Shown here one piece after another: positions 1,847 to 22,842 of a DNA stretch of 64,000 nt (position 1 is its first letter; each line of letters begins with the position of its first letter). The position numbers and the translations under genes were made by a program. The DNA is from Candidatus Latescibacterota bacterium (GTDB lineage Bacteria; Latescibacterota; UBA2968). The stretch spans positions 768,001-832,000 of the forward strand of contig OZ242311.1 of assembly GCA_965207885.1 (NCBI GenBank), written 5' to 3'. Below the pieces are notes generated by a model. It saw only the letters and a program-made list of their open reading frames with translations, had not been told where the DNA came from and ran no database searches.

Positions 1847-2193
1847 GTGTGTTAGAGGCGTTTGACAATCCGAATCCAGAGCGGCGTTATACGATTGAGT
1901 TTACGTTTCCGGAGTTTACGTCGCTGTGTCCCAAGACGGGGCAGCCGGATTTTGCGACGATTGTGATCTGGTATGTTCCGGGTCCGCGGTGTGTGGAGTT
2001 GCGGTCGCTGAAGCACTATTTCTGGTCGTTCCGAGATCAGGGGATTTATATGGAGCCTGTGACGAATCAGATTTTGAACGATCTGGTAGATCTGTGCGAT
2101 CCGATTGAGATGGAGGTGATCAGCCGTTTCAATATTCGCGGTGGTGTAGATCACGAGATTACGGCGTCGTATCAGCGGGCAGATGAGGGGTAG
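1843..2193 (+). CDS. queF: NADPH-dependent preQ0 nitrile reductase QueF (type I)
   Basis: EFTSLCPKTGQPDFA, VELRSLKHY, RGG motifs; ATGA overlap with the upstream paralogue. Confidence 0.88.
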   Translation: MSVLEAFDNPNPERRYTIEFTFPEFTSLCPKTGQPDFATIVIWYVPGPRCVELRSLKHYFWSFRDQGIYMEPVTNQILNDLVDLCDPIEMEVISRFNIRGGVDHEITASYQRADEG

Positions 2194-4111
2194 AGAAACC
2201 CCGCTCATTCTCACCCACCGCAGGCTTCGACGCACCGAAGATCACATCAACCCCTCTGCCTTGAAGGGCTGGAATGTGCGTGTTGATTGATGTGGCACTT
2301 AGCGGGTTTCCTCTCAAATCAACCCTATCTTCACTGCTCAATCCCGTATTTGCCACTAATGGCGAGATATCCACGATGGTGTTGTAGTTAAGATATAGCC
2401 ATTTCAGACCGGTCAAGCCTGAGAGTACCGATATGTCCGAGATGGTGTTGCGCGAAAGACTTAGCCCCGTCAGATAGTTTAAGCCCGCCAGTGCCGAGAC
2501 ATCCGAGATCGCGTTTTCGCCAAGCGCCAGATATACCAGATTTGTCAAGTTCGCCAGTGCCGAGACATCTGAGATCGCGTTTTCGCCAAGCGCCAGTATT
2601 ATCAGGTTGGTCAAGCCTGCCAGTGCCGACACATCTGAGATCGCGTTGCCGCCAAGCCCCAGCCTTTCCAACCTGGTCAAGCCCGCCAGTGCCGAGACAT
2701 CTGAGATCGCGTTGCCGCCAAGCCCCAGCACTATCAGGTTGGTCAAGCCCGCCAGTGCCGACACGTCCGAGATGTTGTTAGAGCTAAGATCCAGTCCTAT
2801 CAGGTTGGTCAAGCCTGCCAGTGCCGACACGTCCGAGATGTTGTTAGAGATAAAATTCAGCCCTTCCAGATTTGTCAAGTTCGCAAGCGGCGATATATCC
2901 GAGGTAAAGTTGTCTCTAAGATCCAGTCGTTTCAGATTTGTCAAGTTCGCAAGCGGCGATATATCCGAGGTAAAGTTGTCTCTAAGATCCAGTTCTTCCA
3001 GATTTGTTAAGTTCACAAGCGGCGATATATCCGAGATTAAGTTATGCCGTAGCCATAGCGTTGTCAGACTGGTCAAGTGCCCCAGCGCGGATACATCTGT
3101 AAGGCCAGTGAAGGAAAGCTCCAGGCTTGTCAGGTTGGTCAGGCTTGATAATGGCGAGAGGTCGTATATACGGTTACTATTACTCCAACCTGCATCAAAC
3201 ACGTGCTCCATACCAAGATTTAAACTTGTCAGACGAGTTGCAAACTCCAGTCCGGTCAAATCTCTGATGTTCGAGTTCGGCACTTCCAGAACGGTCAAGC
3301 TCGCTATCTCCCTCCTTCTGATCGGCGCACCACTCGCCTTGCCCAGACTGTCCGCAATGACCGCACGCAGGTTTGCATCTGGAATGTCAACGATCAATGT
3401 ACTGCCACCGCCAGAAGAAGGCCCTCCTTTGCCAAAGCTGCTGCTAAAAAGCAGAAAATCGCCAAAGCCAATCGCACCATCGCTGTTCAGATCGTACTTC
3501 GCTTCATATCGCCCATCGCCCTGATGTGCCCCAAACTGACCCGCAAACGCTAAAAAGTCGGAAAAATTAACCATACCATCGCCGTCGAAGTCCGATGTGA
3601 GGGCTTGAAACTGTAACTCAACGCGCGTATTCAGGGTTACAGCCTCAAATTGCCCACCCCGACTGAGTTCTGCACGCACCAACCGAATTGCCGTGCCTGA
3701 AAATCCGGCTGTTGTGCGAAAGCGAACTGTACCCACCAGACCGCTGTTGGCAGTTGCTTGACCACCGAGAGATGCGATGCCAATCTCGACAAAACCTGTA
3801 CCTTGCTCTGGGAGTGCCTGAGCATTGGGCAATACGTCTCCCACGCCAAAGCCCTCGTAAGTCACTTGACTGGCATCGTATTCAAAGCGCACCGCAAGGC
3901 CGTTCGCATTTTGTATATCTTTGCCGAAGATCTGAATGGCGACAACCTGATCAGCAGACACATTGAGGGACGTGACCGCTTGATCACCCGCGGTATCATT
4001 TACATCCAGCGATAGGGAAAAGCTATTTTGTGCCGAAAGAGACGGGGGGTGTATCAGAAGCGCGAGTATTGATAAAATTGATAGAATTAGATTCCGCATC
4101 GGTTTCTGCAT
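2159..4111 (-). CDS. Secreted internalin-like LRR protein with cohesin-like and dockerin/EF-hand domains
   Basis: Signal peptide; beta-rich N-terminal domain (FEYDASQVTYEGF...LVGTVRFRT); DFDGDGMVNFSDF and DLNSDGAIGFGDF; IPDANLRAVI LRR cap and about 13 22-aa repeats (NxISDVSALAGLTNL). Confidence 0.88.
   Translation of the reverse strand: MQKPMRNLILSILSILALLIHPPSLSAQNSFSLSLDVNDTAGDQAVTSLNVSADQVVAIQIFGKDIQNANGLAVRFEYDASQVTYEGFGVGDVLPNAQALPEQGTGFVEIGIASLGGQATANSGLVGTVRFRTTAGFSGTAIRLVRAELSRGGQFEAVTLNTRVELQFQALTSDFDGDGMVNFSDFLAFAGQFGAHQGDGRYEAKYDLNSDGAIGFGDFLLFSSSFGKGGPSSGGGSTLIVDIPDANLRAVIADSLGKASGAPIRRREIASLTVLEVPNSNIRDLTGLEFATRLTSLNLGMEHVFDAGWSNSNRIYDLSPLSSLTNLTSLELSFTGLTDVSALGHLTSLTTLWLRHNLISDISPLVNLTNLEELDLRDNFTSDISPLANLTNLKRLDLRDNFTSDISPLANLTNLEGLNFISNNISDVSALAGLTNLIGLDLSSNNISDVSALAGLTNLIVLGLGGNAISDVSALAGLTRLERLGLGGNAISDVSALAGLTNLIILALGENAISDVSALANLTNLVYLALGENAISDVSALAGLNYLTGLSLSRNTISDISVLSGLTGLKWLYLNYNTIVDISPLVANTGLSSEDRVDLRGNPLSATSINTHIPALQGRGVDVIFGASKPAVGENERGFSTPHLPADTTP
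2400..3160. repeat. 66-bp tandem repeats encoding the LRR units
   Basis: Near-identical neighbouring units, e.g. gatttgtcaagttcgcaagcggcgatatatccgaggtaaagttgtctctaagatccagt at ~2869 and ~2935. Confidence 0.85.
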
Positions 4112-7050: not shown

Positions 7051-7860
7051 ATGTCTGTGCTTACGGAAGACGAGATCCGTTTTTTCAAACGCGAAGGCTA
7101 TCTGGTGAAGAAGGGTGCTCTGGATCCCGAGTTGTGCGCCCGTGCGCGCGAGCGCCTGTGGGACGATCCGCCGCCGAGTCTGAAGAAAGACGATCCCGAT
7201 TCGTGGGTGGGTCCCATTAAGCCGGAAGAGGAATCAATGGATAGCAGCAATTACAAGCGCGGTTATCGCTGGCAATACCGCAAGGTGGGCAGAGAGCCCT
7301 GGATGGTCGAGTTGTTGGCAAAAAATCCGGTTGTGTGGGGTGCTGCGGAGCAGATGCTGGGTAAGAATAATTTCCCAGAGCCTACAGGTGTGCGCGGTAT
7401 TTATTGCACGTTGCCCTATGGTGATGTGGAGCGCCAACCGCGTCATTTGCATGTGGATGCCCATGCGTTCAATTTTGCAGTGGTGGGTTATATCGATCAC
7501 GTTCCCGAAGATGGCGGCGGTTTTACGGTGTGGCCCAAGAGCCATCGCACGTTTTTCTTCGATTACCAGACGCGCTATCTCAGGGAGCCATTGCCCCGGA
7601 TGGAGAAGCATAGAGAGGCGTTTCAATCTTGTGACGAGAATTCATATCAGACACATGGCGAACCCGGTGATATTGTTTTCTGGCATCACCGCATTGGGCA
7701 TATGGCGTCGGCCAATTATTCGCGGCAGATTCGAAAGGCGGTGTTGTACGATTTCAAGCTGAACGATATGCCCCAGCTTCAGGAAGAACCTCCGGGGGAT
7801 GATATCTGGGTCGATTGGACAGATGATGTACGGGATGTGTCGATTGAGGATGGGGAATGA
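7051..7860 (+). CDS. PhyH-family 2OG/Fe(II) dioxygenase
   Basis: FFKREGYLV, HVD motif, VWPKSH, PGDIVFWH, second His (IGH). Confidence 0.9.
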   Translation: MSVLTEDEIRFFKREGYLVKKGALDPELCARARERLWDDPPPSLKKDDPDSWVGPIKPEEESMDSSNYKRGYRWQYRKVGREPWMVELLAKNPVVWGAAEQMLGKNNFPEPTGVRGIYCTLPYGDVERQPRHLHVDAHAFNFAVVGYIDHVPEDGGGFTVWPKSHRTFFFDYQTRYLREPLPRMEKHREAFQSCDENSYQTHGEPGDIVFWHHRIGHMASANYSRQIRKAVLYDFKLNDMPQLQEEPPGDDIWVDWTDDVRDVSIEDGE

Positions 7861-11044: not shown

Positions 11045-11902
11045 ATGGATGCGCGCGAGCGATATTTCTGGGATTTGACGGGATACCTCGTCGTGAAAGG
11101 CGTGTTGTCAAAGGAGGAGGTTGCACGGGCGAATGATATTGTGGATCGCTACTGGGATCGGGTTGAGGTCGGCGGTTCAACGGCGAGGAAGTCGGTTGCT
11201 TTTGCCGGTACGGGACGTCCTATGTTGCCCGGTATTCTCGAGTTTCCAAAACCCGATTGCGATCCTTTCAGGGAGATGCTGGCACATCCGGTGCTGGTGC
11301 AGTATCTCAATGTGATGTGTGGCAAGGGTTTTCGGCTGGATCACGGTCCGATGTTTATTGTGAGTAATAAGGGTACGGCAGGCCATACGATGCACGGGAA
11401 TGGCGAGCCACATCGGCCGTATGTTGCGTATCACCATCAGAATGGCAAGCCGTGGGTGGGTGGTGTGACTGTGGCGTGGCAGTTGCACGATTGCGAGGAG
11501 GGTATGGGGGGATTTGCCTGTGTGCCATCGAGCCATAAGTCGATGTTTCCGATGCCCAAAGGTGTGAGTACAGGAGACGACGATATGGGCTTGATCAAGC
11601 AGCCAGTGGTGGAGGCTGGCGATGTTGTCTTTTTTATGGATAGCGCGCAATCACACGGGGCAACGCCGTGGAAGCTGGATACGACGCGGCGGTCCATTTT
11701 GTTCAAATACACAGCGCGCACATGTGTGCGCAGCGGTCTTGCACGGGAGGTGTCGCCGCCTGAGATTTATTGGGATCGAGAAATTGTCGAGGATATGACG
11801 CCCGAGCAGTTGTCGGTTATGTATGGTCCTTATTCCAATCACAGGGGCCGCGTGCCGTCTCTGGAGGTCTGTGATGATGGGGTCGTGCGGATAGAGGCGT
11901 AG
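11045..11902 (+). CDS. PhyH-family 2OG/Fe(II) enzyme, HGN variant
   Basis: WDLTGYLVV, FRLDH, MHGNG, VPSSHK, AGDVVFF, SHG, RRSILFKY. Confidence 0.88.
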   Translation: MDARERYFWDLTGYLVVKGVLSKEEVARANDIVDRYWDRVEVGGSTARKSVAFAGTGRPMLPGILEFPKPDCDPFREMLAHPVLVQYLNVMCGKGFRLDHGPMFIVSNKGTAGHTMHGNGEPHRPYVAYHHQNGKPWVGGVTVAWQLHDCEEGMGGFACVPSSHKSMFPMPKGVSTGDDDMGLIKQPVVEAGDVVFFMDSAQSHGATPWKLDTTRRSILFKYTARTCVRSGLAREVSPPEIYWDREIVEDMTPEQLSVMYGPYSNHRGRVPSLEVCDDGVVRIEA

Positions 11903-11925
11903 TATAAGAATAGGAGCGTTTTACC

Positions 11926-12795
11926 ATGGGTAATAATCTTTATACAGTGAGCGAAGAGGAGAAGTACTTTTTTGATTTGCGCGGCTATCTGGTCGTGCGG
12001 GGTGCTCTGTCTGCGGATGAGGTCAAGGCGTGTAATGATGCGATTGATCACTATGGGGATGAGATCAGGACGCGGTCTATTGAAGATGGCGGCCTGGCGC
12101 GGGGTTCGTCCGTGCTTACGGGGAAAGAGGGCAGGCGCGAGCTTACGGGTATGTTGGGCTGGCCCGAACCCTATCGCGAGCCGTTTCGGAAGTTGCTGGT
12201 TCATCCGGTTGTGGTGAGTCGTTTGAATGAGTTTAGCGGTAAGGGTTTTCGCCTGGATCACGGACCCCTGTTGATTAGCGCGCACAAAGGAGCAGAAGGT
12301 CATACACTGCACGGCGGTGGCGAGCCGTTTAGCCAGTCGGTGTGGTATCACCAGCAGAATGGGAAGATTTTTTGTCGGGGTATTACAGTGGCGTGGCAAT
12401 TGACGGATGTGAATGAGGGCGATGGTGGTTTTGCCTGTGTGCCAGGGAGCCATAAGACTGCGGAGCCGACACCTGCTGAGGTGCGTTCTGTAGAGGACGA
12501 TATGGGGCTGGTTTATCAACCGGTGATGAAGGCGGGCGATGTGCTATTTTTTGCGGAGACGATGACGCATGGTACGCTGCCGTGGTGCAGCGATGGGGAG
12601 CGGCGTTCTGGGCTTTATAAGTACGCTTCTCGCGCAGCGGCTCGCGCTGTGGGTAAGTATTTTACGCCCGAGGATCGCTATGGCGATTGGGTCAGTGAAT
12701 TGACGCCTGAACAACAAGCGGTTTTGTACGGTCCCGGGGTTCACGGCCAGTTGCCCCTGCTGGAGTCCGATGGCGAAACAACGCGGGTTGTGTAG
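11926..12795 (+). CDS. PhyH-family 2OG/Fe(II) enzyme, HGG variant
   Basis: FDLRGYLVV, FRLDH, LHGGG, VPGSHK, AGDVLFF, THG, RRS. Confidence 0.88.
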   Translation: MGNNLYTVSEEEKYFFDLRGYLVVRGALSADEVKACNDAIDHYGDEIRTRSIEDGGLARGSSVLTGKEGRRELTGMLGWPEPYREPFRKLLVHPVVVSRLNEFSGKGFRLDHGPLLISAHKGAEGHTLHGGGEPFSQSVWYHQQNGKIFCRGITVAWQLTDVNEGDGGFACVPGSHKTAEPTPAEVRSVEDDMGLVYQPVMKAGDVLFFAETMTHGTLPWCSDGERRSGLYKYASRAAARAVGKYFTPEDRYGDWVSELTPEQQAVLYGPGVHGQLPLLESDGETTRVV

Positions 12796-12798
12796 AAG

Positions 12799-12930
12799 TT
12801 ATCAGCAGTCAGCGGTCAGCAGTCAGGAAATCAGAGGTTTTAGAGCCGTCATTGCGGCAGGGTTCAAGCCGCAATCCAGAGGGTGTGGATGGGTGGGGTG
12901 CTGAAAGCTGATGGCTGAAAGCTGATCGCT
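12799..12930. repeat. Heptamer repeats (inverted blocks) flanking a CGTC-type REP
   Basis: atcagcagtcagcggtcagcagtcag ... GTCATTGCGGCAGGGTTCAAGCCGCAATCCAG (12848-12879) ... gctgaaagctgatggctgaaagctgatcgct. Confidence 0.75.
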
Positions 12931-12945
12931 CACAAGGAGCAAACG

Positions 12946-13845
12946 ATGGATGCCAGAGAGCGATACTACTGGGATGTGACGGGACATCTGGTGGTGCGCG
13001 ATGTTCTGTCGCAGGAAGAATTGGATGCGGTGAACAATGTGTTGGATTACGTCATTGGCACTGGTATTGTTCACCAGAGTGAGGATAATCACGGGGCAGC
13101 AGATTCTACGTTTTTGCGGGGGACGGGTTCGCGCTGGGTACACGGTACCAGTTTGCTGGAGTTGCCCCTGCCGTATTGCGATCCTGTTCGCAATTTGCTG
13201 GCTCATCCGGTTGTTGTGAAGTATTTGAATGTGATGTGTGGGAAGGGTTTCAGGCTGGATCACGGTCCCCAGTTCAATAATGCGGTGAAGGGTACGGCGG
13301 GTCTGGTCATGCACGGCGCGGGGGAGCCGCATCGAGAATATGTGGCTTATCACCATCAGAATGGCGAGATGTATTGCGGCGGGGTGACTGTGACGTGGAA
13401 TTTGACGGATTGTCCAGCGGGTAAGGGGGGATTTGCTTCGGTGCCCGGGTCACATAAGTCGAAGTTTCAGATGCCGATTGGGGTTCGCAATTGCGATGAG
13501 GATATGGGTGCGGTTGCCAATCCGGGGATTCGAGCCGGCGATGTGCTGTTTTTTATGGATGGGGCGCAATCCCACGGTACGCATCCGTGGCAAAATGATC
13601 ACGACCGCAGGTCTATTCTTTTTAAGTACGCTTCCCGCACAGCGACGCGACAGGGTCCGTCGAATGCGGTTTGTCATCCCGAGATATTTTGGGATCGGGA
13701 TATTGTAGATGGGATGTCGATGGAGGAGCGCGCGGTGATGTACGGTCCGTGTTCTGCACCGCCGAGCGATGAGATGTTTCTGGTGGTTGAAGATGATGGT
13801 GCGGTTCGGCTGGAGAATACGCGGGATCAACAGGCTGCGGATTGA
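12946..13845 (+). CDS. PhyH-family 2OG/Fe(II) enzyme, HGA variant
   Basis: Close paralogue of 11045 (MDARERY, YLNVMCGKGFRLDHGP); MHGAG, VPGSHK, SHG. Confidence 0.88.
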   Translation: MDARERYYWDVTGHLVVRDVLSQEELDAVNNVLDYVIGTGIVHQSEDNHGAADSTFLRGTGSRWVHGTSLLELPLPYCDPVRNLLAHPVVVKYLNVMCGKGFRLDHGPQFNNAVKGTAGLVMHGAGEPHREYVAYHHQNGEMYCGGVTVTWNLTDCPAGKGGFASVPGSHKSKFQMPIGVRNCDEDMGAVANPGIRAGDVLFFMDGAQSHGTHPWQNDHDRRSILFKYASRTATRQGPSNAVCHPEIFWDRDIVDGMSMEERAVMYGPCSAPPSDEMFLVVEDDGAVRLENTRDQQAAD

Positions 13846-13917
13846 GTAGGGGCGGTGCCCCCGTATAAAGTCACTACGGGGCAGGCTCCCGTTTGTCATC
13901 GCGGCATGATTAAAGCA

Positions 13918-13957
13918 GAGGCTCCTGGAGATGCGATCTTCAGGAGCCTTTTATTTT
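13918..13957 (+). terminator. Terminator hairpin between convergent genes
   Basis: aggctcctggagat-gcg-atcttcaggagcct followed by a T-rich tract; preceded by partial GTAG and CGTC REPs (13846-13915). Confidence 0.7.
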
Positions 13958-15498
13958 TACTCCGCATATTGATTGGCGAAGATGATAAAGTCGGTAAAGT
14001 TGATGTGTCCATCTCCGTTGAGGTCAAAGTGTCGCTGATAGCTGGTGTCGCCCCGGTTCAGGCCAAAGTTCTGGACGAATAGGAGAAAGTCGGCGAAGTC
14101 CCGTTGTCCATTGCCATTGAAGTCTATGCTTATTTCGCCGCCCCTGCCAACGGTGAGGGCGATGTTTTCGTCGCCTATTTGGTAGGGTATGTATTCCATG
14201 ACCGCCAGGAGCATTTCATCGGTGGTTTTGTCGCCCCATGTCAAGTTGCGGGGGGGATAATTGGGGTTGAGTGGGTTGTTTGTGGTGTTGTCGTAGGTGG
14301 TGATGGCGTGGATTTGGGATCCCGCAGCTATTTTTTGATATTGGGTGAAGGTGTAATTGCCCTGCCAGTTAAAATCCCAGTCCTGGATACGGATGAGGTT
14401 GGTGCGGTTGCCCTGTGGGTCCGTGGCATAGATTTCCCAGGATTTGCCCAATAAGTGCATGTGGGGATAGATGGACAGGAGGCTGATGTCCCGATTGATG
14501 AAGAGTGTTGTGCGAAATGTTTTGATTTGATCTTTCGGGATGACAAAGAGGTCGTCGATTTTGATTTTTTCTACGGGGGTGCCGCCGTGTCGCTCCTCCC
14601 CGAGCAGGACTCTGAATATTCTGCTCAGTGTTTTACCGTCGGTGGTGAGCGGTGCAAAGCTGATAAAGCCCACTTCTCTTTCGATGGGTTCTTTTTTGAA
14701 GAATATGTTGATGCTGGATTGATCGGATTCTGCAAGGGGCCAGGGTGCGTAGTGTACCTGGATCAGTAAGTCGGAGTTTTTGGGCAGTATGTGTCCAACG
14801 CCTTTGGGATATATCGGGGGTTTTGCGCCGGGTGTATATCCGGGGAGGACAACAGCGGTTGGCGCGCCGAATGCACCAAAGGATTCGTAACCGTATTCTT
14901 CCGGGGTTTCGAGGTCTCTTTGGCGGGCAGTGCCCGTGATGTCGGCGCCGATGAGGGCGTGGTGAACGATTCTGCTGTTGCCGGGGCGAAATTCAACGGC
15001 TTCGACTTCCCGGTCTTCTGTGAGGTGGGTTGGGATGACAAAGACCTGGTACTGGTCCTCGTTGTCGCCGCGGATTGTAAAGGGTTCTGCCATTGTGAGT
15101 ACGAGGTCGGGGGTGCCGAGTACAGAGCCTGTTGGAAATTCCGGCATGGGTGCTTCAAGGGCGATATCGCCCTGGGGAAAGCCGGCGTTGACCCAATTTG
15201 AGATGGTGTTGATTTCTGTTTTGGTGAGTGTTCTCGCGCCGATGTGCTGGCTGTAGTTGTAATCGGGTTTCCACGGGGGCATGTACTGGGTTTCTGTGAC
15301 GTATTTGATCATGTCTGCATATGCCGCGATTTCGCTGTAATTTGTGAGGGGCATAGGCCCTATTTCACCGTTGCGATGACACGATGTGCAGTTGTTGTAT
15401 ATGATTGACGAGACGTGTTCGCTAAAGGTGGGGGCTTTCGCGTGCGGCGAGGCAACGGCGAGGAGGATCGCGAGTATGGAGAGGGTAAGTGGTCGCAT
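13957..15498 (-). CDS. Secreted heme c + copper type II monooxygenase (PHM/DBH-like) with C-terminal dockerin/EF-hand pair
   Basis: Signal peptide; CTSCH; MPPW; IVHH; PHMH; WDFNWQ; DEM; DFNGNGQRDFADF and DLNGDGHINFTDF. Confidence 0.8.
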   Translation of the reverse strand: MRPLTLSILAILLAVASPHAKAPTFSEHVSSIIYNNCTSCHRNGEIGPMPLTNYSEIAAYADMIKYVTETQYMPPWKPDYNYSQHIGARTLTKTEINTISNWVNAGFPQGDIALEAPMPEFPTGSVLGTPDLVLTMAEPFTIRGDNEDQYQVFVIPTHLTEDREVEAVEFRPGNSRIVHHALIGADITGTARQRDLETPEEYGYESFGAFGAPTAVVLPGYTPGAKPPIYPKGVGHILPKNSDLLIQVHYAPWPLAESDQSSINIFFKKEPIEREVGFISFAPLTTDGKTLSRIFRVLLGEERHGGTPVEKIKIDDLFVIPKDQIKTFRTTLFINRDISLLSIYPHMHLLGKSWEIYATDPQGNRTNLIRIQDWDFNWQGNYTFTQYQKIAAGSQIHAITTYDNTTNNPLNPNYPPRNLTWGDKTTDEMLLAVMEYIPYQIGDENIALTVGRGGEISIDFNGNGQRDFADFLLFVQNFGLNRGDTSYQRHFDLNGDGHINFTDFIIFANQYAE

Positions 15499-16099: not shown

Positions 16100-17338
16100 T
16101 TAGTCCAGTAATTTGCCGCCGCCAAACATGGTGGCGATGTCGCGCTGGATGTCCGCCGGGGTGAGGGGCCAGCCCGCAGCGCGAAGCGATTCGTATTTGT
16201 CGATGAAGACGGGGGCGATGACGCCGATGGAGTGGGTCCATTTGTAGAGGAGTTGGTCCAGGATGCGGGCGTCGGAGTGCTGGGGTACAAAGCTGGTGCC
16301 GAGGAGTTCGAGGCGTTCGGCTGTGATTTCCCGGATGATGCTGGGGTTGTTCAAGAACCACCAGCAGCCAAAGGGGTGTACGTTGGGGAATTTGCGGCCC
16401 GTGACGCAGAGTTCGTGCTGGTTTTCGCGCGAGAGGAGTGTGATGAGGAAGTTGACGTCGGGCCAATCGCGTGCGATGCGTTCGAGGTTGGCGATGTCCC
16501 ATTTGCCCAGGCTGTCGCCGCCGTCTTTGAGGGTTGGGTTGACCTGTCGGGTGACGCCGATCATCATTGCCGAGGGGATTTGCAGTTCCCGGGCTGTGGG
16601 ATATACGACGTTGCCCATCATTTGGGAGATGCTGTCTTCAGAGGGGTAGGCAAAGTCCGGGGGGAGCGATATGGCCATGTATCGGGCGTTCATTTTTTGT
16701 GCCCAGTCGGTGAGGTAGCGACGCAGTTCCGAGAAGGTTTTGTCGGTTAGGTGGTCTTCGACGTCGTATCCCAGGCCGCGGAGTTTGCCGGCGGGGGCGG
16801 GCCAGTTCATGAGCGCGCTGTCCAGGCGCAGGACAGCCCTGAAGCGCGAGTCGATGTCTATGCCCTGTTGCCACATGGGTCCTTCGGTGTCGTCGAGGGG
16901 GTCGTTGGTCATATAGACGCAGGCGACGCCGGCGCTTTCAAAGACCATGTCGGTGTATTCTTCAGGTGTTTTTGAGTTGTGGAATGCGCGAAATTCGGAC
17001 AGGTCTTTTGCGCGGGGGTTCAGTCCCAGGCGGTTCATGACGGTGACGATGCCGAGTTGGGCTTCGGATATTGGGGAGCTGTTGCCGACGAAGAGTTGTT
17101 GCCAGATGATGTCGGCCTGTTCTGTGGTGGGCATGTTGTTGAATGTGTCAACTGCGATGCCTTCGGGCAACATGCGCGAGCATTCGGCTTTGAGATAGTG
17201 ATAGGTCAATAGTTCGTCGGGTCCCGCCAGGTAGAGTTCGCCCATGGAGGCGGGGTAGAGGTGGGTGTGTATATCGACGATGGCGTGGTTTTGAAATGCG
17301 TTGTGTACGGCTTCTGCGATTGAAAAATCGGACATCAT
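16100..17338 (-). CDS. uxaC: Uronate (glucuronate) isomerase, amidohydrolase fold
   Basis: DIHTH, ELLTYHY, MTNDP, GCWWFLNNP, QHSDARILDQL.YKW. Confidence 0.85.
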   Translation of the reverse strand: MMSDFSIAEAVHNAFQNHAIVDIHTHLYPASMGELYLAGPDELLTYHYLKAECSRMLPEGIAVDTFNNMPTTEQADIIWQQLFVGNSSPISEAQLGIVTVMNRLGLNPRAKDLSEFRAFHNSKTPEEYTDMVFESAGVACVYMTNDPLDDTEGPMWQQGIDIDSRFRAVLRLDSALMNWPAPAGKLRGLGYDVEDHLTDKTFSELRRYLTDWAQKMNARYMAISLPPDFAYPSEDSISQMMGNVVYPTARELQIPSAMMIGVTRQVNPTLKDGGDSLGKWDIANLERIARDWPDVNFLITLLSRENQHELCVTGRKFPNVHPFGCWWFLNNPSIIREITAERLELLGTSFVPQHSDARILDQLLYKWTHSIGVIAPVFIDKYESLRAAGWPLTPADIQRDIATMFGGGKLLD

Positions 17339-17616: not shown

Positions 17617-18723
17617 ATGGAATACTTAACATACAAATACAAAATGTATAGTCTCTGTGATCGCAATATGTATATCCATAGGGATATAGATTCTTTTGCT
17701 GAGGTGTATAATCATTTCATTGCCTTGCACAAGCGATACTATCGGCGTTTTGGCAAATATCCGAGTAAGTTCACAATGATTAACCATTTGGCAAAGCTGA
17801 AAAGAACAACACGCTTTGCACATTGGCGTTTGTTGCCGTCACAGGCATTGCAAAATGTGGTTGAGCGTATAGACTTTGGCTATCAGAAATTCTTTGCCAG
17901 AGATAATAAGCGTCCGCCCACATTCAGGTCTCGCTTTCGGTATCAGTCCTATACGCTGAAGCAAGCAGGATACAAATTCCTCGAGCGTAACAAGGTGCGT
18001 ATTGGCAAGCGTATATTCAGATACCATAAGAGCAGAAAGTTCGATGTAGAGCGTATCAAGACGGTCACAATCAAACGTGACCGCGTAGGCGATTTGTGGC
18101 TATGTGTTGTTGCAAAAGCTGGGGGTATCAAGTCATTCATTATCAAGAACGGTAAAACCGCAGGTTTTGATTTTGGCTTGCAAATATATCTAACAGCCTC
18201 AGACAGCACAAGGACACAATCGCCATTGTTCTTCAATCGTAATTCGAGGAAAGTCAAAAAGGCTCATCGCAATCTTTCTCGTAAGAAGAAAGGTAGCAAC
18301 AATCGTCACAGGGCAAGAGTAAATCATGCCAGAGTGCATAGGCGCGTTGCTAATCAGCGCAGAGACTATCACTGGCAACTTGCCTATCAACTGTGTAAAG
18401 ACTATGACGTAATGTATTTTGAAACGCTGAATATCGACGCCATGAAAGCGTTGTGGGGCAGAAAGATTAGCGATTTGGGCTTCTCAGACTTTTTGAACAT
18501 TCTCAAGTATGTTGCCAAAAAGACGGGCAAGGTTGTCAAACAAATCGACAAATGGCTACCCACGTCAAAGACATGCTCTGCTTGTGATACAGTGAAAGAG
18601 AATCTTGAATTGCGAGAGAGAACATTCCATTGTTGCGCATGTGGCCTTGAGATGGATAGAGACCTCAACGCGGCGATAAACATTCACAGGTGGGGGCGTC
18701 CACCTATGGCGGAGGTAGCGTAA
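17617..18723 (+). CDS. tnpB: RNA-guided endonuclease TnpB
   Basis: RuvC residues GFDFG, YFETL, DRDLNAAINI; TSKTCSAC...CCAC zinc ribbon; SQALQ; ATG at 17617. Confidence 0.95.
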   Translation: MEYLTYKYKMYSLCDRNMYIHRDIDSFAEVYNHFIALHKRYYRRFGKYPSKFTMINHLAKLKRTTRFAHWRLLPSQALQNVVERIDFGYQKFFARDNKRPPTFRSRFRYQSYTLKQAGYKFLERNKVRIGKRIFRYHKSRKFDVERIKTVTIKRDRVGDLWLCVVAKAGGIKSFIIKNGKTAGFDFGLQIYLTASDSTRTQSPLFFNRNSRKVKKAHRNLSRKKKGSNNRHRARVNHARVHRRVANQRRDYHWQLAYQLCKDYDVMYFETLNIDAMKALWGRKISDLGFSDFLNILKYVAKKTGKVVKQIDKWLPTSKTCSACDTVKENLELRERTFHCCACGLEMDRDLNAAINIHRWGRPPMAEVA

Positions 18724-18846
18724 GACTTGCCGAACTTCGGGGAAGCAAGCAACTACTGTTGATCCCACAATCCCTGCTGAAGCAACAAGATTCTATAATC
18801 CCAATGCTTTAGATTTGGGAGTACGTCAAATTTTTAAATAAAAGCC
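18690..18846 (+). ncRNA. Putative TnpB omegaRNA (reRNA) scaffold plus flanking guide
   Basis: Overlaps the tnpB 3' end and right end (GTAAGAC..., right-end hairpin, TCAA); by the established TnpB model the guide is the flank atttttaaataaaagcc; 5' boundary approximate. Confidence 0.6.
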
Positions 18847-20044
18847 CATAGTACACGACAAAAAATAAAAGACCTGTGAAAAAAGCTAAAAAGAGTTAGG
18901 TTTGAATGTCCCAAGACAAACCTTTCTCATCTTAACAAGGCACAGGTCTATGTCTCCTGAAACTATTGAACTTCAAACGATTATGCAAGGATATTTTCAC
19001 TGGCATAAAGCCCGAATAACGTTTACCGCTGCGTTCATATTGTCGCTGATAAAATTGCGTAGCGTCAATTTTATGAAACTGGCAAACGCACTCAATGGAA
19101 CCGTCAAGCAGAAATCTAATTATCGTCGTATCCAACGCTTCTTTGCCCACTTTGCCTTACCCTATGCGTGTGTGAGACAATTGATCTTGCACTTATTACC
19201 TATAAAGTCGGATTTTATAGTCTCAATAGATCGCACCAATTGGAAGTTGGGAAAATTCAATATCAACATCCTAACCGCAGGCATTATCTATGAAGGGGTC
19301 GCCTTTCCTATCTGTTGGCACTTGTTAAAAAAACGGGGCAATTCCAATAGTGATGAGCGTATCCATTTGATGCAAGAAATGCTCAACTGCATCTGCAAAT
19401 CGCATATCCGCGTTGTCGTCGCAGACAGAGAATTTATTGGAAGAGAATGGTTTAGGTGGTTAGACACACAAAATATACCCTTTGTTATTCGCATCAAGGA
19501 AAACGCTCTTGTCTCATCAGGCGGTAGAGAGATCCCCATAAGAAAACGGTTTGAAAATCTTAATATCCATCAGCAGGTCAACTTGTGCAAACGCCACCGC
19601 GTTTATGACCTGCCTGTATATCTGTCTGCACTAAGATTGAAGGACCAATACCTCATTCTTGCCAGCAACCAAAAAGGTCAAGCCGCATTGGATACCTATA
19701 AAAAACGATGGGGCATTGAAGTCCTTTTTGCCAATCTTAAAAGTCGAGGATTTAATCTGGAAGAGACCCATCTTATACATCAAGACCGCATTGAGAAACT
19801 CATCGCGCTTTTGGCCATTGCCTGCATCTGGGCGCATATCATCGGCGAATGGATAGCAAAAACAAATCCTTTGACGATCAAAAATCACGGGCGGATGGAG
19901 AAAAGTCTCTTCCGATATGGGTTGGACTATTTGCAGTATGTCCTGCTCAATATAAACCAACAAACCCAACAGTTCCTCATATGCATTCGTTTACTGAGTA
20001 ATCCGCCACTGTTTAAAACAATTTAAGTTTTGTCGTGTACCATG
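18847..20044 (+). mobile_element. IS4-family insertion sequence
   Basis: 17-bp TIRs CATAGTACACGACAAAA / TTTTGTCGTGTACCATG (1 mismatch); 9-bp target duplication ATAAAAGCC at 18838-18846 and 20045-20053. Confidence 0.95.
18950..20026 (+). CDS. IS4-family DDE transposase
   Basis: YRRIQRFF, IDRTNW, ADREFIG, YKKRWGIE(x6)K (YREK motif), KSLFRYGLD. Confidence 0.93.
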   Translation: MSPETIELQTIMQGYFHWHKARITFTAAFILSLIKLRSVNFMKLANALNGTVKQKSNYRRIQRFFAHFALPYACVRQLILHLLPIKSDFIVSIDRTNWKLGKFNINILTAGIIYEGVAFPICWHLLKKRGNSNSDERIHLMQEMLNCICKSHIRVVVADREFIGREWFRWLDTQNIPFVIRIKENALVSSGGREIPIRKRFENLNIHQQVNLCKRHRVYDLPVYLSALRLKDQYLILASNQKGQAALDTYKKRWGIEVLFANLKSRGFNLEETHLIHQDRIEKLIALLAIACIWAHIIGEWIAKTNPLTIKNHGRMEKSLFRYGLDYLQYVLLNINQQTQQFLICIRLLSNPPLFKTI

Positions 20045-20884
20045 ATAAAAGCCTTCAACTAATTCTAAAAATTCGCGCCAGCTTTTGATTTCGACATGGG
20101 GGTCGGGTCCATCGAGTGGGGCGTCCAAACGGTTGTACCATACGGCGCCCATGCCGGCGTTGTGCGCGGCTGCGATATCGTATTGTGGTGAGTTGCCCAC
20201 ATACCATACGTCTGCGGGTTTGAATCCGAGTTTGGCGGCGGCGGTTTCCAACAAGAGGGGATGGGGTTTGCGTACCCAGTAGTCGGCGCTGGACATGAGA
20301 AAGCGGAAGTAGTCCGCGATTCCCTGTTGTTCGATTTCCCATATCAATGTGTTGCCGCAAAATGCGGCGTTGCTGACGATGCCCATTGGTATGTTTTTGT
20401 TTCGCAATATTTCGAGGACGTATTCTACGCCCGGTTCGGGTTGCCACGATGTTGCCGCACGCCAGAATACGCGTTCGACTTCTTCAGGTGTGCGGTCAAA
20501 GGTGATGTGCAGGGCTTCATAGACGTGGCGCTGGATGATGTGGGGATGAAATTCTACTTGTGCTTTTTCCCTGCGGGGTATGAGGTCGCGGTTGAGTCTT
20601 TTTATTTGGTTGTCAATGTCTGCGACTGTGTAACCCAATGGGTTGTTGGCGATGTTAAGTGTGGCCGCATGCCCGGCTTCTGGGTCGAATTTGAGGTATG
20701 TCAAGAGGGTGTCGCCCAGGTCAAATAAGATGCCGAGCGGTTTTCGCAAGGTGAGCCGTTCTTCGAGCAGGGGGTGTGGTTCTTCAAGGGTTTCTTCCTC
20801 GATGATCTGCTCTTCTTCGGTTTCTTCACCGCGTGTGGTCTCAGGTGTGCGTTCACGCATGTTTTTTGGGTTTTGTCGTTCCAT
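19991..20884 (-). CDS. HAD-family hydrolase; C-terminus replaced by IS4 sequence
   Basis: FDLGDTL, IVSN, RKPHP, YVGNSPQYDIAAA; residues after EGFY are read from the IS4 end. Confidence 0.85.
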   Translation of the reverse strand: MERQNPKNMRERTPETTRGEETEEEQIIEEETLEEPHPLLEERLTLRKPLGILFDLGDTLLTYLKFDPEAGHAATLNIANNPLGYTVADIDNQIKRLNRDLIPRREKAQVEFHPHIIQRHVYEALHITFDRTPEEVERVFWRAATSWQPEPGVEYVLEILRNKNIPMGIVSNAAFCGNTLIWEIEQQGIADYFRFLMSSADYWVRKPHPLLLETAAAKLGFKPADVWYVGNSPQYDIAAAHNAGMGAVWYNRLDAPLDGPDPHVEIKSWREFLELVEGFYHGTRQNLNCFKQWRITQ

Positions 20885-20988: not shown

Positions 20989-21073
20989 GCCAAAAATGAT
21001 ATGGCTTTTCAGGGTGTAAGGAATTATCATAACTTGCGATGTGACATAGCTACTATTGACAAGGAGTACGACA

Positions 21074-21913
21074 ATGGTTCCAGATCTCGATGTTTATTTG
21101 TTTGATTTGCGCGGGTACTTGCATTTGGAGGGGGCGCTGACGGATGATGAGGTTCAGGTGTTGAACGATTGTTTGGATGAGATTCCCGCGCTGAAGCCGG
21201 GGGAGTGGTACGGGTATGTTCAAGGCCATTCGTATGGCGATGTGACGTCGGGGATCAATTATCAGCAGATTTACGAGGCGGGCGAGCCGTTTGAAGATCT
21301 GATTGATCATCCGTCGTGGTTCGAGCATGTGAAGCTTTTTATCGGTGCGGAGGGGACGTTTGATCACCATCACGGTCCGATGTTTATCGATGAGTGTTTG
21401 GCAAATTTTCGCGAGCCGGGCGAGGCGATTGGCTTGCATTCGGGTGGGTTTCCGCCGATTGCGAGGAATCAGTTCCGGTATCACGGGGGGCGGTTTATGT
21501 GCGGGCAGGTCAATGTGCTGATGGCGCTGACGGATATCGGTCCGGGCGATGGGGGGACGATGTTGATTCCGGGGAGTCACAAGTCGAATTTCAGGCATCC
21601 GTATTACGATAAGCAGAGGATGGGAGAGGACAGGTCTGTGGATGGGACGGTGGGCGCGATTGAGGTGTTTATGAAGGCGGGCGATGCGCTCGTTTTTGTG
21701 GATGGAATTTCACACGGGTCGGCGAAGCGGGTGAATGCGGGGACGCGGCGCATTGTGGTGTATCGATACGGGCCTTCGTGGGGGAATTTCCGGCACGGGT
21801 ACCAGCCTTCGCCAGAGTTGCTGGAACGCCTCACGCCTCAACGCCGCCGTATTGTGCAACCGCAAGTGCTGCTCCCAAGGGAACCGCAGGTGAAAGATAA
21901 GAGTGAGCTGTAA
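21074..21913 (+). CDS. PhyH-family 2OG/Fe(II) enzyme, HSG variant
   Basis: AAGGAG RBS; FDLRGYL, GLHSGG, IPGSHK, AGDALVF, SHG, RRIVVYRY. Confidence 0.88.
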   Translation: MVPDLDVYLFDLRGYLHLEGALTDDEVQVLNDCLDEIPALKPGEWYGYVQGHSYGDVTSGINYQQIYEAGEPFEDLIDHPSWFEHVKLFIGAEGTFDHHHGPMFIDECLANFREPGEAIGLHSGGFPPIARNQFRYHGGRFMCGQVNVLMALTDIGPGDGGTMLIPGSHKSNFRHPYYDKQRMGEDRSVDGTVGAIEVFMKAGDALVFVDGISHGSAKRVNAGTRRIVVYRYGPSWGNFRHGYQPSPELLERLTPQRRRIVQPQVLLPREPQVKDKSEL

Positions 21914-21922
21914 ATAAGTGGT

Positions 21923-22765
21923 TCAGCACGTCACCCCGAGTTCGTCGCCGCCGAAGATGGCGAGGCGTTCTTTTGCGGTCATTTCCTCGGTGCTTTCGGG
22001 GCGGTAGTGGTATTGCAGTGCCCTGCGCCGGTGAGAGGATCGGTTGGTTGGGCTGCCGTGATGGGTCATGCCGTGCCAGAAGAGGCATCCGCCGGGGTCG
22101 AGGGGGACGGTGATGTTTCTGGGGACGGCGACGTCTGTGTCGCATATTTGCCAGTCGCGTCGCCTGAAATGCGGGATGGGTCCTTCGCGATGGGAGCCGG
22201 GGATGATGTGCAAGCACCCGTTTGCTTCTGTGGCGGCGTCGATGGCGATCCATACGCCGACGACGGTGGTGCCAACGGGATAGTTGAAATAGGCGCAGTC
22301 CTGATGCCAGGGTTTTTCGCGGCCGATGTGCGGGGGTTTGATCAGTCCCATGTCCTGAAAGAGTACGGGTGTGTCGTCCATCATGCGGGAGAGGACGGAG
22401 AGGATGTTGGGGGCGTGGGCGAGGTCGTTGAGCCGCGTGTCATGATCGACGAATTTCCAGATTTTACGCACGCTGTCGCGGCGCGCTTTGCCTGTGAGTT
22501 CGGAAAATTGTCCGCGTTTGGCGGCTTCGGCCATTATGCCTTTGAAGTCCTGGCTCTTGCCGTCGATGAGGTCCCACATGGCCTGGCCCGCGGATTTGGT
22601 TTGTTGTGGCGTGAATGCCCGTTGAATGGCGAGGTATCCCTGTTCGTGGAATCGGGCGATTTGACGGTCGTCGATGTCGGCGAGGGTGTCGAGGTAGTCT
22701 GCCCGTCTGGTCGTTTCATAGAGGGATGGGTCGTGCATCGCGATGGGTGTTTCGGCGGTTGCCAT
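21923..22765 (-). CDS. PhyH-family dioxygenase (canonical HQD)
   Basis: FHEQGYL, KPWHQD, WIAID, GCLHIIPGSH, HHGS, RRA; start at MATAET after AGGAG. Confidence 0.92.
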   Translation of the reverse strand: MATAETPIAMHDPSLYETTRRADYLDTLADIDDRQIARFHEQGYLAIQRAFTPQQTKSAGQAMWDLIDGKSQDFKGIMAEAAKRGQFSELTGKARRDSVRKIWKFVDHDTRLNDLAHAPNILSVLSRMMDDTPVLFQDMGLIKPPHIGREKPWHQDCAYFNYPVGTTVVGVWIAIDAATEANGCLHIIPGSHREGPIPHFRRRDWQICDTDVAVPRNITVPLDPGGCLFWHGMTHHGSPTNRSSHRRRALQYHYRPESTEEMTAKERLAIFGGDELGVTC

Positions 22766-22776
22766 GGGAGGCTCCT

Positions 22777-22830
22777 GTGAAGTAGGAAGTGTGAAGTAAG
22801 AAGTGTGAAGTAAGAAGTGTGAAGTGTGAA
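22777..22830. repeat. Heptamer tandem repeat (AAGTGTG/AAGTAAG)
   Basis: gtgaagtaggaagtgtgaagtaagaagtgtgaagtaagaagtgtgaagtgtgaa; also at ~55776 and ~56685. Confidence 0.8.
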
Positions 22831-22842
22831 TTTCAGGGATTG

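Follow-up and report, generated by a model that had tools for sequence, protein, structure and literature searches.

Canonical members of the PhyH superfamily of Fe(II)/2OG oxygenases, such as human PhyH (2a1x) and EctD (3emr and 4mhr), carry an HxD motif. The halogenases SyrB2, WelO5, and BesD have no acid at the HxD position, and halogenases of the SyrB2/CytC3 type (2fct and 3gja; TIGR01762), also of the PhyH superfamily, act on carrier-tethered substrates in NRPS clusters. TlxI and TlxJ (7vbq) are two PhyH-type paralogous chains that are encoded together in a fungal meroterpenoid pathway. The described system closest to the genes analyzed here is HygX of Streptomyces hygroscopicus (PDB 4xc9, 4xca, 4xcb, and 4zpi), an Fe/2OG oxidative cyclase responsible for orthoester formation in hygromycin B. 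In the passage of a review that covers this enzyme (PMC13374393), its triad is H-X-G...E-X3-H, with the acid relocated and Gly left at the old position.

The initial annotation of the window, the whole stretch of 64,000 nucleotides analyzed here, had read three tandem PhyH genes as a candidate radical halogenase cluster, based on the loss of the iron-binding carboxylate. Our analysis points to a different reading. The three genes (P0001 to P0003) and a fourth (P0126) likely encode cytoplasmic Fe(II)/2OG oxygenases of the PhyH superfamily with a HygX-type permuted 2-His-1-carboxylate triad. Fold, family, motif pattern, conservation, and gene order are direct observations, whereas iron binding by the relocated acid, the chemistry, and the kind of substrate are inferred.

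PhyH-family genes in the window

The three tandem ORFs with H-G-N, H-G-G, and H-G-A were confirmed in coordinates, strand, motifs, and Pfam scores. Translations are free of stops on the forward strand, and matches to Pfam PhyH (PF05721) scored 42.2 bits for P0001, 54.3 for P0002, and 44.2 for P0003, compared to a gathering cut-off of 22. Retention of the distal His and the downstream Arg was also borne out by the translations, which have SHG in P0001 and P0003, THG in P0002, and RRS in all three. Both canonical comparators in the window were as described, with HVD in the gene at 7051-7860 and HQD in the gene at 21923-22846 (minus strand). The three paralogues are real, but a fourth clade member with H-S-G had been overlooked. 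This gene, P0126, lies 7 kb downstream of the tandem three, and scores 65.3 bits against PF05721 and 258 bits against the family profile. The relevant features are as follows.

11045..11902, + strand: P0001, D-x4-H-clade oxygenase of the PhyH family (285 aa); H117-G-N119, D199, distal H204, R215-R216
11393..11407, + strand: HGNGE of P0001, proximal His with Asn at the canonical Asp site (H117-G-N119 is nt 11393-11401)
11639..11659, + strand: DSAQSHG of P0001, with D199 as candidate relocated acid and H204 as distal His
11926..12795, + strand: P0002, E-x3-H-clade oxygenase of the PhyH family (289 aa); H129-G-G131, E211, distal H215, R226-R227
12310..12324, + strand: HGGGE of P0002, aligned to LHGGN of HygX (H129-G-G131 is nt 12310-12318)
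12556..12573, + strand: ETMTHG of P0002, with E211 as candidate relocated acid and H215 as distal His
12946..13845, + strand: P0003, D-x4-H-clade oxygenase of the PhyH family (299 aa); H123-G-A125, D205, distal H210, R221-R222
13312..13326, + strand: HGAGE of P0003 (H123-G-A125 is nt 13312-13320)
13558..13578, + strand: DGAQSHG of P0003, with D205 as candidate relocated acid and H210 as distal His
13917..13951, no strand given: terminator-like hairpin, 16 pairs and then a T run, between the end of P0003 and a convergent gene at 13957-15498
21056..21913, + strand: P0126, fourth family member, 285 aa, D-x3-H clade; H128-S-G130, D216, distal H220, R231-R232
21701..21718, + strand: DGISHG of P0126, with D216 as candidate relocated acid and H220 as distal His

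Shine-Dalgarno-like GGAG precedes the ATG of P0001, and AAGGAG precedes that of P0003. The hairpin comes from a consensus-only terminator scan, which returned 14 terminator-like sites in the region compared to 4.9 +/- 2.4 in shuffled sequence. No signal-peptide-like stretch was seen at the N termini of P0001 to P0003 when the translations were read directly.

Neighboring genes encode a DUF72 protein, an apiosidase-like hydrolase, a dockerin protein, peroxiredoxin-like proteins, transposases, a sulfatase, and a GH10 protein, and the remaining genes of the window are housekeeping. Many sulfatases are expected in these genomes. A functional link to the sulfatase was rejected; 43 of 81 sources had a sulfatase cluster no more than 10 kb away, but that cluster was built by single linkage.

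An acid ahead of the distal histidine

Profile alignment to human PhyH placed the His of LHGG on the His of LHQ-D, the distal HG on HG, and one Arg of RRS on the PhyH Arg that binds the C5 carboxylate of 2OG, and it left the canonical acid position without an acid. Either Arg of the RR pair may be the one that binds 2OG. All four window proteins keep both His residues but do not have the HxD/E...H facial triad at the canonical position, where P0001 has N, P0002 G, P0003 A, and P0126 G. Neither D nor E was present there in any of 92 diverse family sequences (74 G, 6 A, 5 S, 3 P, 2 Q, 1 N, and 1 L) or in any of 213 aligned rows from related loci and the window (101 A, 54 G, 20 S, 20 N, 17 Q, and one gap). 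Absence of the canonical acid is a character of the clade, not chance. P0001 falls within a 20-leaf sub-clade (support of 1.0) that is all Asn, and another sub-clade of 16 has Gln. The initial annotation had suggested diversification at exactly this position, and this holds weakly, as small or polar residues swap there even among orthologues (52 A, 20 G, 8 S, and 1 Q in the P0002 clade). A MAFFT alignment of P0001 to P0003 with the two canonical PhyH proteins of the window was set aside, since it misplaced the HxD region, with PWHQD on PHRPY, and the ligand question was addressed with profile alignments to solved chains.

Loss of the iron-binding carboxylate was therefore correct for the canonical position only; an acid is kept elsewhere, before the distal His. 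The 213 rows, tallied with profile anchoring, are family members from the window and from 80 related loci found by a search with an 11-row alignment. An Asp or Glu lay 3 to 4 residues ahead of the distal His, as E-x3-H, D-x4-H, or D-x3-H, in 212 of these rows (121 D and 91 E), and the same column held an acid in 81 of the 92 diverse sequences (67 E and 14 D). The proximal and distal His were each found in 212 of 213 rows, the two Arg in 212 and 205, and the SHK motif likewise in at least 205. Among canonical PhyH ORFs from these loci, none of the 59 rows that aligned over the distal His had an acid in this column, versus 211 of 212 family rows. In the AF2 models, D199 of P0001 directly follows the strand at 194-198 and H204 starts the strand at 204-207, while E211 of P0002 directly follows the strand at 206-210 and H215 starts the strand at 215-218.

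Searches with the family profile (111 sequences) against the PDB gave HygX as the best match, with an E-value of 6e-30 over nearly the full length, followed by EctD (9e-16), human PhyH (5e-13), SyrB2 (2.2e-6), and CytC3 (2.3e-6). HygX was also the best single-sequence PDB match for each of P0001, P0002, and P0126 (E-value of 4.5e-15 for P0126). The models of P0002 (pLDDT 94.6, pTM 0.93) and P0001 (pLDDT 91.9) both had HygX chains at Foldseek ranks 1 to 10, with an E-value of 3e-17 for P0002 and TM scores of 0.65 to 0.73 (normalized by target length), and all Foldseek matches listed were Fe/2OG oxygenases with a double-stranded beta-helix fold. In the profile alignment, LHggg of the family lies on LHGGN of HygX and FtEaltHGt on LNEALMHGT. 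A phmmer alignment of P0002 alone, which put the HygX LHGG on AHKG, was rejected because the His of AHKG is not conserved in P0001 or P0003; the deeper profile further contradicts it, with LHGG on LHGGG.

By the profile alignment, E211 of P0002, D199 of P0001, and D205 of P0003 are candidate iron ligands. In the proposed site, the proximal His would stay at the iron, Gly, Ala, Ser, Asn, or Gln would stand where the canonical Asp lies two residues past it, and the carboxylate ligand would be supplied by the Asp or Glu that ends the strand before the distal His. Such a triad would be complete, and hence no free halide site would be left on the iron. Expected chemistry would be oxygen transfer or oxidative C-O or C-C reactions (hydroxylation, dealkylation, or HygX-like cyclization) on a free polar small molecule. 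The initial annotation had also offered "other non-hydroxylating chemistry," which is possible by analogy, HygX being an oxidative cyclase.

Related loci and alternative readings

A phylogeny, which the initial annotation had proposed, was built with FastTree, and the type of acid defines its clades: E-x3-H with 82 leaves (support of 0.89), D-x4-H with 95 (0.99), and D-x3-H with 25 (0.995). Orthologues of P0002 (69 to 98% identity) occurred at 80 loci in genome bins of Latescibacterota, Poribacteria, and Gemmatimonadota. At least two family members lay within 10 kb of each other in 76 of the 80 loci and in the window, mostly adjacent and on the same strand. In 12 to 15 loci, the three clades shared one same-strand string with gaps of 10 to 61 bp, in the order aminotransferase, 3-hydroxyacyl-CoA-dehydrogenase-like protein, PhyH, PhyH, O-methyltransferase, PhyH, and RraA-like aldolase. 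Because these old paralogues stand side by side in several phyla, they probably serve one pathway. Overall, 293 clusters (50% identity) belong to the family at an E-value of 1e-30 or below. A protein atlas search gave only generic PhyH names for clusters.

One alternative is that the tandem paralogues form hetero-oligomers, like TlxI and TlxJ, and divide subunit roles instead of acting as independent enzymes. Adjacency of E-x3-H and D-x4-H genes in 76 of 80 loci from several phyla fits this arrangement, and a PhyH-type heterodimer has been solved (7vbq). Complex prediction for P0002 with P0001 gave weak backing, with a score of 0.56 (runs of 0.56, 0.46, and 0.70) whereas none of 3 controls exceeded 0.00; the runs shared at least 88% of contacts, and the partner pLDDT was at least 85. 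In calibration, 116 of 157 solved complexes passed the mark used for this score, as did 2 of 215 mismatched pairs, and scores of 0.60 or below included only 18 of the 157 solved complexes plus both passing mismatches; these counts are rough here because our own alignments were used. A pass of this kind is rated more often wrong than right unless the complex was likely beforehand; it may reflect memory of the similar complex already solved, and paralogues from a homodimeric family would score alike. The full set of catalytic residues in all paralogues also fits independent enzymes acting in sequence, and we consider division of roles within a hetero-oligomer unlikely.

The halogenase proposal fares worse. 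It would make the proteins carrier-independent Fe/2OG halogenases in which His-x-small leaves a halide site and the Asp or Glu near the distal His belongs to the second sphere only. In its favor, none of the 92 or 213 members has an acid at the HxD position, like SyrB2, WelO5, and BesD, and the absence of NRPS or PKS domains from the window ORFs scanned, which had been reported correctly, makes a free substrate plausible. The HygX section of the review cited above calls the motif reminiscent of halogenases (PMC13374393), and related genomes come from groups described as marine sponge symbionts, for Poribacteria in an excerpt of PMC3909097; the sponge habitat is halide rich and might tie these genes to halide. 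On the other side, the nearly invariant acid (212 of 213 and 81 of 92) aligns with the metal-binding Glu of HygX, which is the top match in both sequence and fold, whereas SyrB2/CytC3 matched the family profile at 2e-6 versus 6e-30, 24 orders of magnitude worse. TIGR01762 gave 16.4 bits for P0002 against a cut-off of 226.3 and no match to P0001 or P0003 at an E-value of 0.01 or below. No halogenase was among the Foldseek matches listed for the P0001 and P0002 models. Judged by eye on molecule names, neither WelO5 nor BesD was among the best 60 of 70 PDB sequence matches at an E-value of 1 or below or among the Foldseek matches listed, to about rank 49. The Asn of P0001 and its 20-member sub-clade and the Gln of the 16-member sub-clade are also neither Ala nor Gly. 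Halogenation by these proteins is thus very unlikely, and the window enzymes are probably an unusual subtype of otherwise ordinary oxygenases.

As an exception to its own proposal, the initial annotation had allowed that the iron might be held by another carboxylate, either the Glu of HGxGE, four positions past the proximal His, or the Asp or His of FRLDH. Another carboxylate probably is on the iron, but the candidate residue is neither of these. Most P0002 orthologues do keep E133 (161 E and 13 D in this column of the 213 rows), and D111 and H112 of FRLDH are D in 81 and H in 65 of the 92 diverse sequences. The E133 column of the diverse family, though, holds 18 T, only 15 E, 10 I, 8 A, and others, Phe or Tyr takes its place in the P0126 clade, including P0126 itself, and HygX, metal-bound according to its PDB titles, has L and E instead of the Asp-His of FRLDH. 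Since the acid before the distal His is much better conserved, ligation by HGxGE or FRLDH is highly improbable. Finally, the broken triad at HxD could indicate catalytically dead or non-oxidative binding proteins, a suggestion that is barely credible, as the retained His pair, relocated acid, Arg pair, and SHK, together with confident models, imply purifying selection on an active site.

Significance and comparison with described systems

A PhyH-type protein with HxG or HxA is commonly flagged as a radical halogenase. This flag fails for the whole clade described here, in which the carboxylate appears to have moved rather than been lost, and genome mining for halogenases should also inspect the position 3 to 4 residues before the distal His. 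According to the part of PMC3909097 that covers them, over 1.9% of the genes in Poribacteria encode a PhyH domain, and most of these have no function assigned. Some of these expanded genes seem to have both the HygX-type site and a tandem order that is conserved. In the portions of the literature surveyed, the clade and its triad are nowhere described; the nearest papers concern general PhyH abundance and a demethylase, PHYHD1, with PHYHD1-type enzymes of the PhyH family. The four genes and the string of aminotransferase, dehydrogenase, O-methyltransferase, and aldolase genes in related genomes offer a handle on the oxidation targets of the symbionts.

A bolder proposal, possible but doubtful, is that the permuted triad is the hallmark of a large unrecognized clade of 2OG oxygenases, whose sub-clades may form hetero-oligomers and carry out non-hydroxylating radical chemistry on a free polar metabolite of host origin. 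If so, the HygX triad would be no one-off of an antibiotic pathway, and the clade would have expanded in Latescibacterota, Poribacteria, and Gemmatimonadota. The three sub-clades (E-x3-H, D-x4-H, and D-x3-H) would be ancient and retained together, and the vacated HxD space would bind substrate or an anion, steering cyclization, C-O formation, or, least likely, halogenation.

Compared to described enzymes, the family shares PF05721 and the fold with canonical PhyH and EctD, and both His and the 2OG Arg align. The canonical enzymes differ in carrying HxD, in having Pro at the relocated-acid column (human PhyH), and in profile E-values of 9e-16 to 5e-13 versus 6e-30 for HygX. TlxI and TlxJ were both among the PDB matches, with weak similarity to the family profile (7e-12 and 5e-9). 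Like the SyrB2/CytC3 halogenases, the family has a small residue for the HxD Asp, and the Ala or Gly typical of those enzymes is found in P0002 (G), P0003 (A), and P0126 (G), while P0001 has Asn. Unlike them, it retains a carboxylate that aligns with the HygX metal ligand and has no NRPS cluster here.

Differences from HygX are also clear. Identity is only 18 to 22%, HygX has one Arg where the window proteins have RR, and HygX lacks FRLDH. Conservation of FRLDH (D in 81 and H in 65 of 92) and of the local HGxGE Glu (161 E and 13 D of 213) is an observation that the permuted-triad model leaves without explanation. Lys137 of HygX (YVKAL), said to fill the space vacated by Gly, corresponds to T154 in P0002, Thr in P0001 and P0003, and Asn in P0126, as counted on alignments that assume that the 4xc9 chain index equals the residue number. 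Orthosomycin or aminoglycoside genes are not found near P0001 to P0003 or P0126, nor does an antibiotic gene cluster surround them, so nothing points to a HygX-like substrate.

In the motifs themselves, H-X-G of HygX recurs as HGG in P0002 and HSG in P0126, and HGA of P0003 and HGN of P0001 are variants of it. The spacing of E-X3-H is identical in P0002 (E211-x3-H215) and is D-x3-H in P0126, where D216 aligns to the HygX Glu. D-x4-H of P0001 and P0003 has one residue more than HygX, and in the profile alignment its acid follows FFx in the shared column, although the pairwise alignment of P0001 is ambiguous by one position and sets Ser, not Asp, opposite the Glu. Common to the family and HygX are LHGG in place of HxD, the acid ahead of the distal His, GSHK, and an N-terminal YxFDxxGYL helix-strand.

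PhyH-family genes of the locus

Three PhyH-family genes, P0001 to P0003, lie head to tail in the window with intergenic spacers of 23 and 150 bp, and Shine-Dalgarno-like sequences are found upstream of P0001 and P0003. P0001 shares 50% identity with P0002 and 58% with P0003. Their translations carry the H-G-N, H-G-G and H-G-A motifs, the distal S/T-H-G and the R-R-S described in the initial annotation, and HVD and HQD are indeed present in the two canonical PhyH genes with which it contrasted them. The observation that the triplet lacks the carboxylate of the HxD motif is thus confirmed, and it also holds for a fourth clade member, P0126, which that annotation did not include.

Features of the window discussed in the text
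2159-4111, minus strand: leucine-rich-repeat protein, 650 aa
11045-11902, plus strand: P0001, 285 aa, passes the PhyH Pfam threshold; H-G-N, D-x4-H
11926-12795, plus strand: P0002, 289 aa, passes the PhyH Pfam threshold; H-G-G, E211-x3-H215
12946-13845, plus strand: P0003, 299 aa, passes the PhyH Pfam threshold; H-G-A, D-x4-H
13917-13951: terminator-like hairpin of 16 pairs, 3' of P0003
17602-18723, plus strand: TnpB/OrfB_IS605-type gene
18902-20026, plus strand: DDE transposase, with 23-nt inverted repeats at 18847-18869 and 20022-20044
21056-21913, plus strand: P0126, same clade as the triplet; H-S-G, D-x3-H

The first 23 kb of the window hold six PhyH-domain genes, including the canonical pair (7051-7860, plus strand; 21923-22846, minus strand), and the remaining 41 kb hold none. 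The HQD gene (21923-22846) is convergent with P0126 at a distance of 9 bp and adjoins a dockerin-bearing sulfatase (22843-24501, minus strand) and a GH10 xylanase-like gene (24558-25805, minus strand). Dockerin or EF-hand-like segments occur on these two neighbors and on a function-unknown protein (13957-15498, minus strand). A poribacterial genome paper (PMC3909097), whose title also announces eukaryote-like repeat proteins as a topic, already reports the general abundance of PhyH genes in Poribacteria. A 2025 report (PMC12709175) describes PHYHD1-type PhyH enzymes, one of them from Poribacteria, with demethylase activity on 2'-O-methyl-nucleosides.

Position of the putative metal-site acid

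In a profile alignment to human PhyH, the His of LHGG coincides with the HQD His, and the downstream HG and Arg coincide with the distal His and the Arg of that enzyme; therefore, the canonical carboxylate position is truly nonacidic in these proteins. A profile of the four window proteins, searched against 1.84 billion representatives (clusters at 50% identity), retrieved 4,145 clusters at an E value of ≤1e-3, 1,567 at ≤1e-10, and 293 at ≤1e-30. Conservation was scored in a diverse set of 92 sequences, consisting of the window proteins and 88 of 150 listed representatives, the other 62 falling outside the range of 240 to 345 aa. Several of the best database representatives, including P0127, P0128, P0129, and P0131 (490 to 580 aa, with three matched stretches), were excluded from the alignments by length; each could be a fusion of two HygX-like domains or the product of tandem genes that were merged. 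A genome scan added 80 loci with P0002 orthologues (69 to 98% identity), labeled Latescibacterota/Latescibacteria (48), Poribacteria (21), Gemmatimonadota or related (7), Dehalococcoidia (1), or unlabeled (3), with Latescibacterota bins as the nearest relatives of the window. Together, the window and the 80 loci supplied 212 family ORFs, which gave a profile-anchored alignment of 213 rows.

In neither alignment was the HxD acid position occupied by Asp or Glu (diverse set, G74 A6 S5 P3 Q2 N1 L1; 213 rows, A101 G54 S20 N20 Q17), and its nonacidic state is a character of the clade rather than chance. An acid is found instead shortly before the distal His. The column of E211 (P0002 numbering) is acidic in 81 of the 92 diverse sequences (67 Glu, 14 Asp), and in the 213 rows it holds 121 Asp and 91 Glu. 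In P0001 and P0003, whose motif is D-x4-H, the Asp occupies this column too, following the FFx strand and with one residue inserted. The proximal and distal His are each kept in 212 of 213 rows, and in 91 and 88 of the 92 diverse sequences, alongside SHK (90 to 91), two Arg (85 and 84), and the Asp (81) and His (65) of FRLDH. The Glu of HGxGE, a candidate ligand in the initial annotation, is Glu in only 15 of 92.

Canonical PhyH ORFs of the same loci had no acid before the distal His in any of the 59 rows that align over that residue (two of them duplicate window ORFs); three further rows that carry it proved to be family members, either fragmentary or divergent. The acid is therefore distributed reciprocally: it is found at HxD or before the distal His, never at both and almost never at neither. 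A further PhyH-like group in related loci, with 70 to 76 bits to the family profile, shows another variant of the metal-site motif (L068 5782-6732, L050 325-1230, L054 3741-4646, and L064 6057-6962), with WRTALYHC at the distal motif in all four rows and H-E-L at the proximal motif in three, the stretch being unaligned in L064.

Clades, gene neighborhoods, and possible pairing of paralogues

A midpoint-rooted FastTree tree of the local family (211 rows) splits into three clades that coincide with acid type.

Clades of the local family tree
E-x3-H: 82 leaves, support 0.89, window member P0002
D-x4-H: 95 leaves, support 0.99, window members P0001 and P0003
D-x3-H: 25 leaves, support 0.995, window member P0126

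Inside these clades, different residues occupy the former Asp position; the initial annotation had proposed that the three paralogues diversify at exactly this position. The variation fits a spacer needing only a small or polar residue, not adaptive diversification.

At least two family members, usually adjacent, lie within 10 kb of each other in 76 of the 80 loci and in the window, and of the four loci with a single member, three are truncated by a contig end. Flanking genes vary by lineage: the window and the loci closely related to it have a DUF72 gene, an apiosidase-like hydrolase, and a dockerin protein, and 16 loci mostly labeled Poribacteria have a PRK/uridine-kinase-family gene with housekeeping genes. 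In 12 to 15 loci, family genes are embedded in a same-strand string with gaps of 10 to 61 bp, encoding a class-III aminotransferase, a 3-hydroxyacyl-CoA-dehydrogenase-like protein, an E-x3-H PhyH, a D-x4-H PhyH, an O-methyltransferase (Methyltransf_2), a D-x3-H PhyH, and an RraA-like aldolase. This operon-like order, exemplified by locus L037 (7372-14466, plus strand) and 11 to 14 similar loci, points to a single pathway with a small polar molecule as its substrate. Strings of the L037 type have a divergent sulfatase upstream and a heparinase II/III-like gene downstream. A sulfatase cluster is no more than 10 kb away in 43 of 81 sources, which is weak evidence for a functional link.

The TnpB-type gene and the DDE transposase, located between the triplet and P0126, occupy a region of low GC content (0.426 over 18001-20000). 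Counterparts of both are missing from all 80 related loci, where orthologues of the genes on either side (16100-17338 and 19991-20884) are direct neighbors. The two appear to have been inserted recently in this lineage.

P0002 was folded together with P0001 on account of the constancy of this pair and the precedent of a PhyH-type heterodimer (TlxI/J, 7vbq). The co-fold score of 0.56 (runs of 0.56, 0.46, and 0.70) compared with 0.00 for the best of three controls, at least 88% of contacts agreed between runs, and partner pLDDT was at least 85. Of 157 solved complexes, 116 attain the pass mark, as do 2 of 215 mismatches (rough counts, own alignments used); scores of ≤0.60 were given by only 18 of the 157 solved complexes, plus both passing mismatches. 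A similar complex has already been solved, and any paralogues from a homodimeric family could be expected to give this result, so the prediction weakly suggests a heteromer and shows likeness at most.

Comparison with halogenases and HygX

The best solved relative of a 111-sequence family profile was the Fe/2OG oxygenase HygX (E value of 6e-30, residues 6 to 234 of 261), followed by EctD (9e-16), human PhyH (5e-13), and SyrB2 and CytC3 (about 2e-6). HygX was also the sole PDB match of P0001 alone. AF2 models were confident (P0002, pLDDT 94.6 and pTM 0.93; P0001, 91.9 and 0.91), and Foldseek searches of the PDB ranked HygX chains 1 to 10 for both (E values of 3e-17 and 3e-16, respectively; TM of 0.65 to 0.73 by target), ahead of SptF, SnoK/SnoN, AndA, TlxJ, OkaE, KanJ, and EasH. 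In both models, a strand (206-210 in P0002, 194-198 in P0001) ends just before the acid, and the following one begins with the distal His (215 and 204).

Halogenases have Ala or Gly at the HxD acid position, and the initial annotation read the triplet as candidate carrier-independent Fe/2OG halogenases. This is improbable, as the acid column is conserved, HygX is the closest solved relative with no halogenase among the Foldseek matches listed, the chlorinating-enzyme model TIGR01762 gave P0002 only 16.4 bits against a cutoff of 226.3 and left P0001 and P0003 unmatched, and Asn or Gln fills the position in sub-clades of 20 leaves (including P0001) and 16 leaves, respectively. The absence of nearby NRPS or PKS genes stated there was borne out, with no NRPS, PKS, or carrier protein among the window ORFs scanned (≥150 aa up to 30 kb, ≥200 aa beyond).

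The family probably represents a large, uncharacterized PhyH clade with a putative HygX-type permuted 2-His-1-carboxylate site; no published description of the clade or its triad was found in the literature searched. Oxygenation or oxidative cyclization of a free polar metabolite is the most likely function. A review (PMC13374393) assigns HygX an H-X-G…E-X3-H iron triad in which the acid is relocated, and states that this enzyme forms hygromycin B from hygromycin C through oxidative cyclization. In the profile alignment, the family's LHggg, GSHKsnfp, and FtEaltHGt fall on LHGGN, GSHKANFP, and LNEALMHGT of HygX; when P0126 and P0001 are searched individually, D216 of P0126 aligns with the Glu of the HygX E-x3-H, and the acid of P0001 is shifted by one because of the inserted residue. 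Unlike HygX, the family shows low identity, lacks the Lys137 equivalent, has the FRLDH motif and a D-x4-H variant, and is accompanied by no antibiotic cluster, differences that leave room for distinct chemistry.
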